A DNA stretch of 64,000 bases. Source: Chloroflexota bacterium (GTDB taxonomy: Bacteria; Chloroflexota; Anaerolineae; CAYNKW01). Of the stretch, positions 46,560 through 51,732 are shown piece by piece. Under the pieces are notes generated by a model. The model ran no database searches. It was not told the DNA's origin and worked only from the letters and a program-made list of their open reading frames with translations. The stretch spans positions 126,517 through 190,516 of the forward strand of contig JBMOMT010000060.1 in the NCBI GenBank assembly GCA_049324835.1, written 5' to 3'. The translations under genes were made by a program, and so were the position numbers. The stretch's first letter is position 1. The number at the start of each line of letters is the position of its first letter.

Positions 46560-48869
46560 TCAGTCAGGCTCGACCAGCGCCGCCAGCTCTTCCGATAAGG
46601 CGGCGATGTCATCGTACGAACGGCGGGCGGCAGCCAGCAGGCCCTCCATCTCGGCGATGCGACGCCGCAGATCGGCTTCGGAGTAACTTTCCAGCCAGGC
46701 GTCGCGGATGAGCTGCTCAAAGCTGCGCGTATCGTCTATGGCTCCCAGGATCAGGTCCAACTCGCCGACCACCAGCTCGAACAGGCGGATCTTGTTGGCC
46801 AGCAAGTCCAGAACATAAGCCTCGATGGTGTTTTGCGCCACCAGGTTCAAGACCACCACTTCTTGCTCCTGGCCCAGGCGGTGCAAACGACCGATGCGCT
46901 GTTCCACTTTCATCGGGTTCCAGGGCAGATCGTAGTTGATCAGCACGCGACAGAATTGTAAATTGTGTCCCTCTGCGCCCGATTCCGTGCTGACGAGGAC
47001 TCTTGTTCCTTCACGAAAGGTACGCACCGCCTCCTCTTTGGCGGCAGCATCCAGGCCACCGTGGAAGACGACCGTCTCGTGGCCGTGAGCCTCGAGTGCG
47101 GCCTGTAGCGCGCGTAGCGAGGGCAAAAACTCGGTGAAAATCACCACCTGATCTGGAAAACGCTCCAGCAGATGCAACACCGCCTGGGTTTTTCGTCCCA
47201 GTGCAATACCCTGGGCCAGGTTCAGAAACCCCGCCAGCCGGTCGCGGGATTCGTCGTTCTGGCGCGGATCGGCCACCATCTTTTCCAGGGTGGCGGCCAC
47301 AGCCTGGGGGCTGCTGCACAGCTCTTTTTGCAGCGTCATCAGTGTCAGCCGCAGGTGGCGCGCCTCGGGTTGACCGGCCAGCTCGTGGCGGATAAAGCCC
47401 GTAACGCCGTCGTAAAGCGCCCTTTCCGCCGGGGTGAGCTGCAGATGGTAGATTGCCGCCTGCCGCGGTGGTAGTTGCACGCTCACCTGGCTGCGTCGAT
47501 GGCGGATCATCACCTCGGCCAGCAGGCGGCGTAGCGCCGGCGTGTTCTGCGGCGTGAGGTTGCGCTGCCGGCGCTGAGGGCGCTCGGCCTGCCGGCGGCG
47601 TGCGGTTTCCCTGGCGGCCTCACTCAGCCGCAGCCGGGCGACGAACTCGTATCGTGCGCGTCGCAGCAGGGAGGAGGTTTCCAGCAGTTCGAAATCGAAC
47701 ACCTCGTAGCCCTGCTGGATCAGCGCCAGAATTTCCTGGCGGGCTTGTTCTCGTCTGCCGGAAAGCGAAAGCGCTGCCAGTTGCGCCAGATCGTGGCTGC
47801 GCCGCCATCTCTTGCGCACCCAGGTGCTGCTCGTCGAGTCCCAGTATCGATCTCGCCACTCCCGCGAGCGGCCCAGGTAACTCCACCACGGATCGCTGCG
47901 CACCGTCCGCCGTGCCGCCCGGCGGGCGCCAGGCTGCTCCAACTGGCGCCGGGCGATAAAATCGCGCCGAAAAGCGCGAGCGGTGCCCAGGTGGCCGGGT
48001 CGCAAGATGTTGATCAGGCCATAGAGTTCCATCAAATCGTTGTGCACCGGCGTAGCGGTGAGCAACAGCACATAGCGTTTGCGGATCTGATTCACAAAGC
48101 GGTGCACCCTGGTGGCGCGATTCTTGAGCTTGTGAGCCTCATCGACGATGAGCAGGTCGTACTCGCGCGCCAGCAGGCTCGAGGCGTACTCGGCCCGCCT
48201 GGCCCGACTCAGAGAGACCAGCCAGCGCAGGCGCGTTTCGCCAGCCGGTAGTTCCAGGTGACCAGGATGGCGGACGACGGTGAACGTCTCGCCGAACTTG
48301 GTTTGCATCTCTTCGCGCCATTGGGCCGTCAGCGAGGCAGGCACCAGGATCAGCACACTCTGGGCCAGCCCCCGTTCGATGAGCTCTTTCATGACAATGC
48401 CGGCCTCGATCGTCTTGCCCAGGCCGACCTCATCGGCCAGCAGGGCGTGACCTCGCATGTCCCGCAGGGCGCGCAACGCGGCCTGGAGCTGGTAATCGTG
48501 ACGGTCGATGTGGATGTCATCCAGGCAGATGAGGCGATCAAAGCCGGTGGATAGACGCAGGCTCTCAGCTCGCAGACGTAGATCATAGATGGCGGGAGAG
48601 TCGGAGGGCATGGTTTGTAAGCGGGCGCGCAGATCGGCTTCCGGCTCGACGATGCGAGGCAGGGGAGCCGCGTCCAGCTCATCAAAGGCTGTGGTCAGGT
48701 CAATGGCCTCAGCCAATGGACGGCCACAGCGGACGCAGGTGGCCTCTTGCAAGGGGTTGGGCCAGTCGCAAAACGGACAAGGCCGCACGGTGATGGAGCG
48801 GGCCGTGCGGCGGGTCGAGGGCGAGCCGGGCTTGAAAGAGGTGGTGAGCCACTCCAGATGTTCGCTCAT
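46560..48869 (-). CDS. SNF2-family DEAH-box helicase with N-terminal zinc ribbon and large Arg-rich insertion
   Basis: CPFCDWPNPLQEATCVRCGRPL zinc ribbon. Walker A ADEVGLGKTIEAG. DEAH (LLIVDEAHKLKN). Helicase-C block (LVSTESGAEGHNLQFCRVLINYDLPWNPMKVEQRIGRLHRLGQ). About 170-aa low-complexity insertion between the lobes. Confidence 0.8.
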   Translation of the reverse strand: MSEHLEWLTTSFKPGSPSTRRTARSITVRPCPFCDWPNPLQEATCVRCGRPLAEAIDLTTAFDELDAAPLPRIVEPEADLRARLQTMPSDSPAIYDLRLRAESLRLSTGFDRLICLDDIHIDRHDYQLQAALRALRDMRGHALLADEVGLGKTIEAGIVMKELIERGLAQSVLILVPASLTAQWREEMQTKFGETFTVVRHPGHLELPAGETRLRWLVSLSRARRAEYASSLLAREYDLLIVDEAHKLKNRATRVHRFVNQIRKRYVLLLTATPVHNDLMELYGLINILRPGHLGTARAFRRDFIARRQLEQPGARRAARRTVRSDPWWSYLGRSREWRDRYWDSTSSTWVRKRWRRSHDLAQLAALSLSGRREQARQEILALIQQGYEVFDFELLETSSLLRRARYEFVARLRLSEAARETARRRQAERPQRRQRNLTPQNTPALRRLLAEVMIRHRRSQVSVQLPPRQAAIYHLQLTPAERALYDGVTGFIRHELAGQPEARHLRLTLMTLQKELCSSPQAVAATLEKMVADPRQNDESRDRLAGFLNLAQGIALGRKTQAVLHLLERFPDQVVIFTEFLPSLRALQAALEAHGHETVVFHGGLDAAAKEEAVRTFREGTRVLVSTESGAEGHNLQFCRVLINYDLPWNPMKVEQRIGRLHRLGQEQEVVVLNLVAQNTIEAYVLDLLANKIRLFELVVGELDLILGAIDDTRSFEQLIRDAWLESYSEADLRRRIAEMEGLLAAARRSYDDIAALSEELAALVEPD

Positions 48870-48909: not shown

Positions 48910-49443
48910 TCACCAGCGAACCGGCGCCTTTTTCAGTCGATAGGATCGATCCAGAAACTGTACAAAGCCGTTTTGCCTGCCAAACTCGTACAGCTCTTTG
49001 GTGACCTTGACGTCCTGTTTGCAGTATTCGATGATTTTATCGATCTGGCCGCTTTTGTACCAACGCACGGCGGCCAGGCCGTCGGCAGATTTTTGTGCGC
49101 CCAGCGTGGCGCTGGCCAGGCTATCCAGACTCACCCGAAAGCCCAGCGCGCGGTGAATGTGATCCAGCATATCGATGGTGGGGATCTGCTCGAAGGGGTG
49201 TTCGCTGTAGGCGCGCAGCACCTCGTAATCGAAACGGATCACGTTAAAGCCCACCACCAGCTCGGCCTGGCTCAGGTCGCGCACCAGTGAGGTGACATCG
49301 GCCTCGGTGTAGACGTGGTAGGCCTGGTCGAGAGTGTTATACGTGACGCCAACGGACAGGCCCAGCTGGCGTGTGTTGTGCCGCCCGCCCACGTCATCGA
49401 AGGTTTTTTGTGTTTCCAGATCGAAAAAGAGAATAGGGTTCAT
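48910..49443 (-). CDS. DEDDy-type 3'-5' exonuclease (RNase H-like fold, RNase D/WRN-exo-like)
   Basis: Motif I FFDLETQ (D-x-E), motif III YCKQDV (Y-x3-D). 177 aa single domain. 40 nt upstream of the SNF2 helicase gene on the same strand. Confidence 0.6.
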   Translation of the reverse strand: MNPILFFDLETQKTFDDVGGRHNTRQLGLSVGVTYNTLDQAYHVYTEADVTSLVRDLSQAELVVGFNVIRFDYEVLRAYSEHPFEQIPTIDMLDHIHRALGFRVSLDSLASATLGAQKSADGLAAVRWYKSGQIDKIIEYCKQDVKVTKELYEFGRQNGFVQFLDRSYRLKKAPVRW

Positions 49444-49468: not shown

Positions 49469-50488
49469 TCAGATGGCGAGCTGGGCGTTCAGCGCGTCCA
49501 GCACCAACTGGATGGGATTGATGAGTGTCGTCGTCTCGGAACCGGCGAAAAGCAGGCCAACGATATAACCCTCGTCGTCCAACACCGCCGATCCGGAATC
49601 GCCGCCGGCGCTCATGGCCCCGGCCATCAACTGGTCGGTAAAGGTGGCCAAACGGCTGCCATAGGCCACCTGCACGGTGACGTCGATCTGGACGATGCGG
49701 CCCGTCGTGTAGCCGGTAGTACGACCTGACTTGCGCACGGTTGTGCCCAACGTGGCCTGGCGCACGCCCTGGGGCAGCCCGATCTGCAAGATCTCTTTGC
49801 TCACCAGGTCGGCTGAAAGGGGCAGCGCCAGCGCACAATCCACCTGGTTGAGACCGTCCGATTCCTGAAAGGCCGAGAGGCGATGCCTGGAGCCCACAGC
49901 CCTGGCAATGGCATTGAGTAACTTTTCGACGCCGGTGGCGACGCCGCACACGGCTGGAGTATCGCCAAAATCGATGGGCACGAACTCGGCCAGTGTGGCG
50001 ATCTGATCCGCCGTCGTGCCGCCGTCGTGCGGCCCAGGTTGAAGGATGGCATCACCGACCCTGGCGTCGTTCGAGTTGGCCAGCACATGATTGTTGCTCA
50101 GGATATAGTCGCGGCTGTTTTTGGTCACCAGGCAGCCCAGCGTGCCGGCGGTAATGGCGTAATGGCCGATAGACACGCCGCCGGGGGCGGGCCGCCATTT
50201 GTCCTGAGGGCCTTGAAAAGCCCGGATCTGGCCCACCTCCACCACGTCGCTCTTGACATCCTGGGCGATGACTTTGGGGATCAGGTCCTGGGCGGTCAAC
50301 TGGGCCTGGGGCACCTTTTTGGTCACGCCGACGACGACGCATGGCTCGTCGGTGACGATGCCCTGGCTCTCTTTGAAACCCACGCCGCAGGCCACCACGT
50401 TGGGTTTGCTCAGTAAAAATCTGGCATACTCTTGTCTCACGCCGCGCACCAGTTTGATAGCATCGAGCAGCGTCTGGTTCATGTACAT
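49469..50488 (-). CDS. trypsin/chymotrypsin-like (S1) serine protease with ~90-aa N-terminal pro-like domain, no signal peptide
   Basis: Catalytic His in SNNHVLANS, Asp in GDAILQPG, Ser in GDSGSAVL, and substrate-pocket GY/GT motifs. The N-terminal 90 aa is paralogous to the product of 50517..50783. Confidence 0.75.
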   Translation of the reverse strand: MYMNQTLLDAIKLVRGVRQEYARFLLSKPNVVACGVGFKESQGIVTDEPCVVVGVTKKVPQAQLTAQDLIPKVIAQDVKSDVVEVGQIRAFQGPQDKWRPAPGGVSIGHYAITAGTLGCLVTKNSRDYILSNNHVLANSNDARVGDAILQPGPHDGGTTADQIATLAEFVPIDFGDTPAVCGVATGVEKLLNAIARAVGSRHRLSAFQESDGLNQVDCALALPLSADLVSKEILQIGLPQGVRQATLGTTVRKSGRTTGYTTGRIVQIDVTVQVAYGSRLATFTDQLMAGAMSAGGDSGSAVLDDEGYIVGLLFAGSETTTLINPIQLVLDALNAQLAI

Positions 50489-50516
50489 GGCTCCTCCCCC
50501 CGGCGACTGGCTGGTT

Positions 50517-50783
50517 TCAGCTCAGCGCTCGAATTTCTCCCACTTCCCGCACGTCCACCGGCACCCCTTCCAGTTCGGCAGGGATGAGATCGGCGCCTCC
50601 GATCTCGTTTTGGGGAAGTTTGTGTTTGACCGATACCACGATGGCTATCTCGTCGGTCAATTGTTGATTTTTCTCCTTGAATCCGATGCCCACACCCACG
50701 ACATTTCTTTTGCCCAGTAAGGCAGCCTGGTGCCGGCTCATCACCTGTCGGATCCAGTCCAGGTCGATCTTGGAAACCATCAT
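50517..50783 (-). CDS. small protein paralogous to the N-terminal (pro-like) domain of the adjacent S1 protease
   Basis: NVVGVGIGFKEKNQQLTDEIAIVVSVKHKLPQNEIGGADLIPAELEGVPVDVREVGEIRAL aligns at about 45 percent identity to protease residues about 28-95 (NVVACGVGFKESQGIVTDEPCVVVGVTKKVPQAQLTAQDLIPKVIAQDVKSDVVEVGQIRAF). RBS GAGGAGG. Confidence 0.6.
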   Translation of the reverse strand: MMVSKIDLDWIRQVMSRHQAALLGKRNVVGVGIGFKEKNQQLTDEIAIVVSVKHKLPQNEIGGADLIPAELEGVPVDVREVGEIRALS

Positions 50784-50827
50784 CCACCTCCTCGCCTCCG
50801 AAGGCCAAAACCGGAGGCCCGGGCTCC

Positions 50828-50870
50828 ATTATAGCACAGATTTGACAGCCTCACAAGGCTTTGCTATACT
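50828..50870. promoter_or_regulatory. face-to-face overlapping divergent promoters: minus TTGTGA-17-TGCTATAAT (small protein/protease operon) and plus TTGACA-17-TATACT (CooC-like gene)
   Basis: Minus-strand -10 equals plus ATTATA at 50828-50833 with TGC extension; -35 equals plus TCACAA at 50851-50856. Plus-strand -35 TTGACA at 50842-50847 and -10 TATACT at 50865-50870. The elements interdigitate. Confidence 0.5.
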
Positions 50871-50922
50871 TTGCCGCGCTGTGTGGCGTGACACACCGCG
50901 CCGAGTGAATCACACCTGTTGG

Positions 50923-51732
50923 ATGGAGGGTATTGTGGCAATAACCATCGCGGTAGCTGGCAAGGGTGGGGTGGGCAAAACGCTCATCTCGGCTCTGCTC
51001 ATCAACCATCTGGCACGCCGGCGCAATGGCCCGGTGCTGGCCATCGACGCCGATCCCAGCACCAATTTGCACCTGGCGTTGGGCGTCAAGGTCAACTTTG
51101 ACCAACTGGAAACGGTCGGCGGCATCCGCGAAGAGACGGCTGTCGATGTGCAGGGCGGCAGCAACCTGGGCGGCATGAGTAAACCCGATTATTTCGACCT
51201 GCGCATCCAGCAGGCCATCTGGGAAGAGGACGATTTTGATCTGCTGGCTATGGGTCGCCCGGAGGGGCCGGGTTGTTACTGCGCCGCCAACAACATGCTG
51301 CGTATCTCCATCGACCGGCTCTCGGCCTCTTATCGTTACCTGGTCATCGACAACGAGGCTGGGTTGGAGCACCTCAGCCGCCGCACCACGCGTGATGTGG
51401 ACGTGCTGCTCATCGTGGCCGATGCGTCTATGCGCAGCATTCTGACTGCCGGCGGCGTGGCCAGGCTGATCGACGAGTTGCGCACCCACGTGGGGGCCAA
51501 ATATCTCATCGTCAACCGTGTGCCCACAGACGAAAACGGCCAGCCCAAACTGCCGGAAGCGTTGCGTCAGGGCATCGAAGCGCAGGGCCTTCGACTGGCC
51601 GGCATGATCCCCATGGACCCTGTGGTGGCCGAGTTCGACGCGCTGGGCAAACCGGTGGGGGATATCCCCAGCACGTCACCGACTCGCCGCGCTTTTGATC
51701 GTATCCTGGCCGCGATCCCCGAGCTGAATTGA
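50923..51732 (+). CDS. CooC/AcsF-like P-loop ATPase (MinD/ParA superfamily nickel-insertion accessory protein type)
   Basis: Deviant Walker A AVAGKGGVGKT and the CooC-type block GLEHLSRRTTRDVDVLLIVADASMRS. The start is probably GTG 50936 (RBS GGAGGG at 50926-50931) or ATG 50923. The track ORF from 50677 is over-extended. Confidence 0.65.
   Translation: MEGIVAITIAVAGKGGVGKTLISALLINHLARRRNGPVLAIDADPSTNLHLALGVKVNFDQLETVGGIREETAVDVQGGSNLGGMSKPDYFDLRIQQAIWEEDDFDLLAMGRPEGPGCYCAANNMLRISIDRLSASYRYLVIDNEAGLEHLSRRTTRDVDVLLIVADASMRSILTAGGVARLIDELRTHVGAKYLIVNRVPTDENGQPKLPEALRQGIEAQGLRLAGMIPMDPVVAEFDALGKPVGDIPSTSPTRRAFDRILAAIPELN

Follow-up and report, generated by a model that had tools for sequence, protein, structure and literature searches.

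A bacterial NAL1-like serine protease and the separately encoded copy of its N-terminal domain

In a 64,000-nucleotide stretch of the genome of a Chloroflexota bacterium of the class Anaerolineae (contig JBMOMT010000060.1, positions 126,517 to 190,516; hereafter the window), a small protein of 88 residues is encoded directly upstream of a cytoplasmic serine protease of 339 residues. The protease is related to rice NARROW LEAF 1 (NAL1), and the small protein is a free-standing copy of NAL1_N, the domain with which the protease begins. The small protein, we infer, serves this NAL1-like protease as a dedicated partner subunit. The reading we favour, at a probability of roughly one half, is that it attaches to the protease as an additional NAL1_N module, probably in a nucleotide-bound state, and that it governs how the protease assembles and thereby how active it is. 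We lean towards a partner that promotes or gates the protease rather than one that simply inhibits it. The arrangement is a NAL1-type protease with a second, trans-encoded domain resembling the ATP-binding domain (ABD) of NAL1, and not a new kind of system.

An earlier sequence-only reading of the window had recognized a free-standing copy of the protease N-terminal domain encoded upstream of the enzyme, and this was confirmed: both open reading frames (ORFs) are present on the minus strand (Table 1), and residues 11–87 of the small protein align with residues 14–91 of the protease at 35/78 identical positions (45%; BLASTP, E = 5e-17). The identity of about 45% given in that reading therefore stood, but the protease span it had assigned to the alignment, residues 28–95, did not. 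The full H/D/S triad that it described is present in the motifs SNNHV (H134), GDAIL (D146) and GDSGS (S298), and the three columns are invariant in a 65-sequence alignment of the protease family. Neither window protein has a hydrophobic N-terminus (maximum Kyte–Doolittle score over 15 residues: small protein, 1.05; protease, 1.47), in agreement with the earlier statement that the protease lacks a signal peptide. Strong Shine–Dalgarno sequences precede both genes. The ratio of non-synonymous to synonymous substitution rates (dN/dS) was ~0.14–0.15 for the small gene and similar for the protease gene; the small gene is therefore a real gene under purifying selection. No terminator was found in the 28-nucleotide spacer between the two, indicating a putative two-gene operon.

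Both window proteins matched the Pfam family PF25608, "NARROW LEAF 1 N-terminal domain" (NAL1_N), with scores just above its gathering score, and the same family was matched by 33/33 homologues of the small protein. When a profile of the small-protein family was compared with the PDB, rice NAL1 was the sole match, in one stretch (residues 97–157, E ~1e-6) that falls within the ABD. The sequence-only reading had likened the shared domain to the pro regions of the alpha-lytic protease family; the sequences do not support this and identify the domain as NAL1_N/ABD. The alpha-lytic prodomain family was matched neither by the window proteins (Pfam, E ≤ 1) nor by any of the 33 small homologues (E ≤ 10), and the small-protein profile matched no pro-region chain in the PDB. 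Structural scores of the domain against the alpha-lytic pro region lay in the twilight zone. The protease domain itself is nearest to NAL1, followed by the alpha-lytic/S1E clade.

The place of the domain in rice NAL1 is known from structures. The NAL1 ABD (residues 89–172) has one helix and four strands, with ATP-Mg held by two loops. It is not removed from the enzyme, and trimers form as it packs against the protease domain of the next subunit (PMC12012508). Two such trimers stack into a hexameric cage, and oligomerization is required for activity (PMC12012508).

We surveyed the pairing of the two genes in one genome per species scanned with the protease, and searched the six-frame ORFs of the resulting 80 loci for partners with hidden Markov models (HMMs). 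The loci span Anaerolineae and other Chloroflexota, Desulfobacterales, Gamma- and Betaproteobacteria, Bacteroidales, Ignavibacteria, Calditrichia, Chlorobi, Coriobacteriia and others. The pairing, whose conservation the sequence-only reading had made a measure of its proposal, proved widespread, with an adjacent free-standing NAL1_N-like ORF at 72 of the 80 homologous loci (90%), in many phyla. In Anaerolineae the partner lies upstream of the protease (the window type), elsewhere it lies immediately downstream, and in two loci it is on the opposite strand. In the commonest arrangement, found at most downstream loci, the partner gene starts 4 nucleotides before the end of the protease gene, an overlap that suggests translational coupling. 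Independent look-ups of contigs placed the same pair in differing neighbourhoods, and an all-versus-all BLAST comparison of the flanking ORFs revealed no third gene conserved across lineages. The downstream-type partners are homologous to the window type (hhalign, 99.4%, E = 7.5e-22), and Pfam recognized none of them. We also considered them as relatives of PDB entry 4HLB and rejected this, there being no sequence match.

Both members of the pair belong to large families. Searched against 1.84 billion cluster representatives, the small-protein profile matched 6750, 1582 of them at E ≤ 1e-10, and among the 150 best representatives 113 were stand-alone single-domain proteins. The 34 close homologues of the small protein are all 84–108 residues long with the same ends, and small proteins stop 0–2 residues past an I-R-A-L/Q motif, which in the window forms the C-terminal tail …VGEIRAL. 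The bacterial protease family comprises at least 8000 clusters at 90% identity. One protease homologue of 681 residues (P0324) has a match to LAGLIDADG_3 (PF14528), with 47% of the query covered, and resembles a NAL1-like protease interrupted by an intein.

Natural in-frame fusions join the same domains in one chain, six in the order small protein–NAL1_N–protease (P0064, P0065, P0076, P0079, P0143 and P0157) and one in the order NAL1_N–protease–small protein (P0155). In an AlphaFold2 model of a fusion, both NAL1_N domains were predicted to fold, with confidence, on either side of a disordered linker; the first domain was represented by only six alignment rows in the input, because MAFFT had aligned the stand-alone proteins to the second domain. 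Neighbour joining grouped the protease N-domains in a pure clade (82/84), distinct from the small proteins; the duplication is thus an old one that has persisted and did not arise again and again. With the fixed ends of the family and the dN/dS of ~0.15, this separate clade rules out a recent duplication or a decaying pseudogene.

NAL1 contacts ATP-Mg through R120, R122, K123, K139 and D166-V167 (PMC12012508), and we mapped these positions onto a joint alignment of the domains. Among protease N-domains, the R120 position is K in 83/84, the K139 position K in 84/84 and the D166 position D in 84/84. Window-type small proteins are nearly as constant, with K or R at the first position in 36/40, K at the second in 39/40 and D at the third in all 40. 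Because these ligand equivalents are kept, both window proteins are predicted nucleotide binders, and the alignment suggests that they may bind nucleotide as NAL1 does. The mean identity of the rice ABD was 30% to window-type small proteins versus 24.5% to the bacterial protease N-domains.

Under the favoured reading, the small protein is an ancient NAL1_N paralogue that would supply the protease with a second, docked NAL1_N module, so that the pair would have the same set of domains that its fused relatives hold in a single chain. It would thereby control the folding or assembly of the protease into an active oligomer, probably in a nucleotide-dependent manner. The case for a dedicated two-component protease system is built on the near-universal adjacency, the signs of translational coupling, the fusions in both orders, the purifying selection and the fact that the partner is a paralogue of the domain that forms the oligomer interface in NAL1.

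Several observations weigh against this reading. At 8 of the 80 loci (L021, L022, L023, L043, L045, L055, L064 and L065), no NAL1_N partner was found within ~4 kb with both HMMs at relaxed thresholds. The downstream-type partners, which are the commoner ones, lack the hairpin tip, the lysine and the aspartate, so that the K/K/D ligands are lost. About 35 of them carry Sec or lipoprotein-type signal peptides that their cognate proteases do not have. These partners come from Desulfobacterales (Desulfobacterota), Gamma- and Betaproteobacteria and Chlorobi (loci L025–L038, L042–L054, L063 and L068–L075; for example, L074:4993-5286 and L035:5005-5295). Their reading frame opens at the protease stop codon, 4 nucleotides before the gene end, and several have lipobox-like motifs (LALAGAC, LGLAGVAC and AMGGAC). 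The proteases at these loci begin directly at the N-domain helix, so that a signal peptide would have no space. From their predicted N-termini, partner and protease thus appear to reside in different compartments there, which fits poorly with a cytoplasmic complex in every lineage. The window-type small protein has no such signal peptide.

That the small protein acts instead like a pro region, as a trans foldase and/or tight inhibitor of the catalytic domain, which is what the sequence-only reading had proposed, we consider unlikely, together with the variant in which a decoy ABD takes up the trimer interface and prevents assembly. As a pro region it would act as folding catalyst and keep the enzyme inactive until it was removed, with the conserved tail …VGEIRAL perhaps sitting in the active site. 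The two-domain pro region of alpha-lytic protease consists of two tandem domains ahead of the protease. The small protein and the protease N-domain likewise amount to two tandem similar domains before the protease, a layout that the fusions reproduce, and the fixed C-terminal end of the small proteins, the place of the alpha-lytic/S1E clade as next neighbour of the protease domain after NAL1 and the resemblance in fold all speak for such a role. That resemblance, however, goes no further than twilight-zone scores, and neither the 33 family members nor the PDB yielded a sequence match to the alpha-lytic prodomain or pro region. NAL1, the sole characterized relative, retains its domain, binds ATP and needs the domain for the active oligomer (PMC12012508). 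Moreover, pro-region proteases are secreted and the present system is cytoplasmic; the partner gene mostly follows the protease gene; the window-type small protein retains its nucleotide ligands; and a stable C-terminal fusion such as P0155 is ill-suited to a removable N-terminal pro-peptide. A speculative and quite improbable extension would make NAL1_N and the alpha-lytic pro region distant homologues. The bacterial NAL1-like systems would then be intracellular descendants of pro-region-dependent proteases in which the folding catalyst persisted in the form of permanent modules under nucleotide regulation, one acting in cis and a second encoded in trans. As a trans foldase or an assembly switch, the free-standing copy would license the active cage, and the proteobacterial partners with signal peptides would link that switch to the state of export or to the cell envelope.

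Distinctly unlikely, in our judgement, is a functional link without a stable complex, in which the small protein serves as substrate, as decoy or, together with other partners, as adaptor or nucleotide sensor, and shares only ancestry and regulation with the protease. The signal peptides or lipoboxes on partners but not on proteases in Proteobacteria, Desulfobacterota and Chlorobi would suit this account, with their suggestion of different compartments, as would the large share of stand-alone proteins among the best profile matches. NAL1_N domains are also found in other settings: within one set of proteins (P0158, P0156, P0159, P0215 and P0240), the domain occurs in two or four tandem copies with no recognized protease domain, and twice beside a PLD-like domain in a protein of 1011 residues. 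NAL1-like proteases are therefore not the only carriers of the module. Yet a signal peptide is missing from the window type, relatives carry in-frame fusions of it with the protease, and the 90% adjacency and the 4-nucleotide overlap, with the translational coupling that it suggests, tell against a loose association. Very improbable, finally, is a selfish or defence module of the toxin–antitoxin or effector–immunity kind, the logic to which the sequence-only reading had likened the pair. A small gene does stand beside a potentially harmful enzyme, and a SNF2 helicase with DrmD/BrxH-like similarity is encoded nearby in the window genome. However, PADLOC gave no matches for the small protein, the protease or the neighbouring exonuclease, the closest relatives have no such helicase at the syntenic locus, the flanking genes are housekeeping genes with no neighbour conserved across lineages, and the partner is a paralogue of the enzyme's own domain that also occurs fused to it. 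We rejected this interpretation on the PADLOC result, the absence of the helicase from the relatives' locus and the lack of a conserved third gene. A co-subunit or assembly factor fits better than an inhibitor, antitoxin or immunity protein, given the PADLOC result, the ordinary chromosomal setting, the fusions in both orders and the retained ligand residues.

The locus is part of an ordinary syntenic chromosome and not a mobile or defence island. In the nearest relatives (78–80% identity) the gene order is that of the window: aldehyde:ferredoxin oxidoreductase, response regulator-GAF, a divergent ParA-like ATPase, the small NAL1_N protein, the protease and a DEDD/RNase H-like exonuclease. The exonuclease is followed by a radical SAM gene in these relatives, where the window has the SNF2 helicase. 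The extended −10 promoter that the sequence-only reading had placed before the pair was recovered upstream of the small gene and is conserved in relatives. It matches the consensus at 10/12 positions with the TG present, and 4 sites were observed versus 0.5 expected. It belongs to a bidirectional block of ~55 nucleotides, common to the small gene and the divergent ParA-like gene, in which AGTATAGCAAAGCCTTGTGA.CCTGTCAAAT.TGTG.TATAATGGA is nearly identical in the close relatives L087 and L089 despite a synonymous divergence (dS) of at least 1, at which synonymous sites are saturated. A hairpin in the 5' untranslated region of the small gene was dropped from consideration, as it was no better than shuffled sequences (z = −0.5) and was not conserved.

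Three neighbouring genes merit brief description (Table 1). The ORF of the ParA/MinD-like ATPase is probably over-extended, with a start near position 50935 (MEGIVAITIAVAGKGGVGKT), because its orthologues have 265 residues. The RNase H-like/DEDD 3'-5' exonuclease gene starts 25 nucleotides past the protease stop codon; it is found downstream in the closest relatives (L087, L089 and L090) and not in more distant lineages. The SNF2-family helicase has an N-terminal zinc ribbon and partial DrmD/BrxH/DpdE-like scores, and no other DISARM or BREX genes were seen near it. The closest relatives lack it at a locus that is otherwise syntenic, and it is likely a solitary lineage-specific insertion.

Table 1 Features of the locus, with positions counted from the first nucleotide of the window
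Feature	Position	Strand	Description
Small NAL1_N gene	50517..50783	minus	88 aa (87 aa from second ATG); GAGGAGG Shine-Dalgarno upstream
Protease gene	49469..50488	minus	339 aa; NAL1_N domain and chymotrypsin-fold S1 serine protease domain; cytoplasmic, NAL1-like
Intergenic spacer	50489..50516	minus	28 nt; holds GGAGGAG Shine-Dalgarno of protease gene
NAL1_N (ABD-like) domain of protease	50216..50467	minus	residues ~8-91; C-terminal end VGQIRAF
Serine protease domain	49472..50197	minus	residues ~98-339
Catalytic residues of protease	50087-50089 (H134); 50051-50053 (D146); 49595-49597 (S298)	minus	
Ligand equivalents in small protein	50676-50678 (K36); 50619-50621 (K55); 50553-50555 (D77)	minus	K36, K38, K55, D77
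Ligand equivalents in protease N-domain		minus	K39, K58, D81; invariant in family
Promoter-like site	50828..50856	minus	-35 TTGTGA, 17-nt spacer, TG-extended -10 TATAAT
Divergent promoter site of ParA-like gene	50842..50870	plus	TTGACA-17-TATACT, in conserved block
ParA/MinD-like ATPase ORF	50677..51732	plus	351 aa
RNase H-like/DEDD 3'-5' exonuclease	48910..49443	minus	177 aa
SNF2-family helicase	46560..48869	minus	769 aa

In the literature that we searched, we found no description of bacterial NAL1-like proteases or of their pairing with a partner; the "NAL1" of one paper on Caulobacter proved to stand for nalidixic acid (NAL^10). NAL1 is an agronomically important plant protease whose ATP-stabilized cage was solved only in 2023–2025. 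A very large bacterial family that almost always has a separate ABD-like copy predicts a hetero-oligomeric or partner-regulated NAL1 architecture, and the pair offers a simple two-gene system in which to ask what the ATP-binding domain does. A testable idea about the origin of the NAL1 ABD comes from the weak structural resemblance to the alpha-lytic pro region.

Of the known systems, rice NAL1 (PDB 7Y77, 8HAS/8HAT/8HAU and 8PME-8PN2) is the closest. In it, too, NAL1_N/ABD precedes a chymotrypsin-fold serine protease domain whose triad is H/D/S; it provides the best sequence and fold matches, and the equivalents of its ATP/Mg-contacting K/K/D residues are conserved. The bacterial enzyme differs in its length of 339 residues, without NAL1 residues 1–88, whose strand beta1 joins the two trimers, and without the C-terminal extension 459–582. 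The chain of the window protease opens with the NAL1_N helix and closes with the protease domain, and so lacks the strand for trimer–trimer stacking (NAL1 residues 48–53). A further difference is the separately encoded second NAL1_N domain, which is not known for NAL1. In the precursors of alpha-lytic protease and streptogrisin (S1E; PDB 2PRO and 4PRO), whose N-terminal pro region serves as foldase and inhibitor, the likeness is that the small protein together with the N-domain mimics a two-domain pro region. Here, however, there is no detectable sequence relationship, the window proteins have no signal peptide and show no sign of processing, the bacterial NAL1_N domain carries nucleotide-ligand residues, and the extra domain copy is a separate gene that in other phyla usually lies downstream of the protease. 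The free-standing "alpha-lytic protease prodomain-like protein" DESPIG_01740 of Desulfovibrio piger, a structural genomics target (PDB 4HLB), differs from the partners described here in that it is matched by neither the window-type nor the downstream-type profile.
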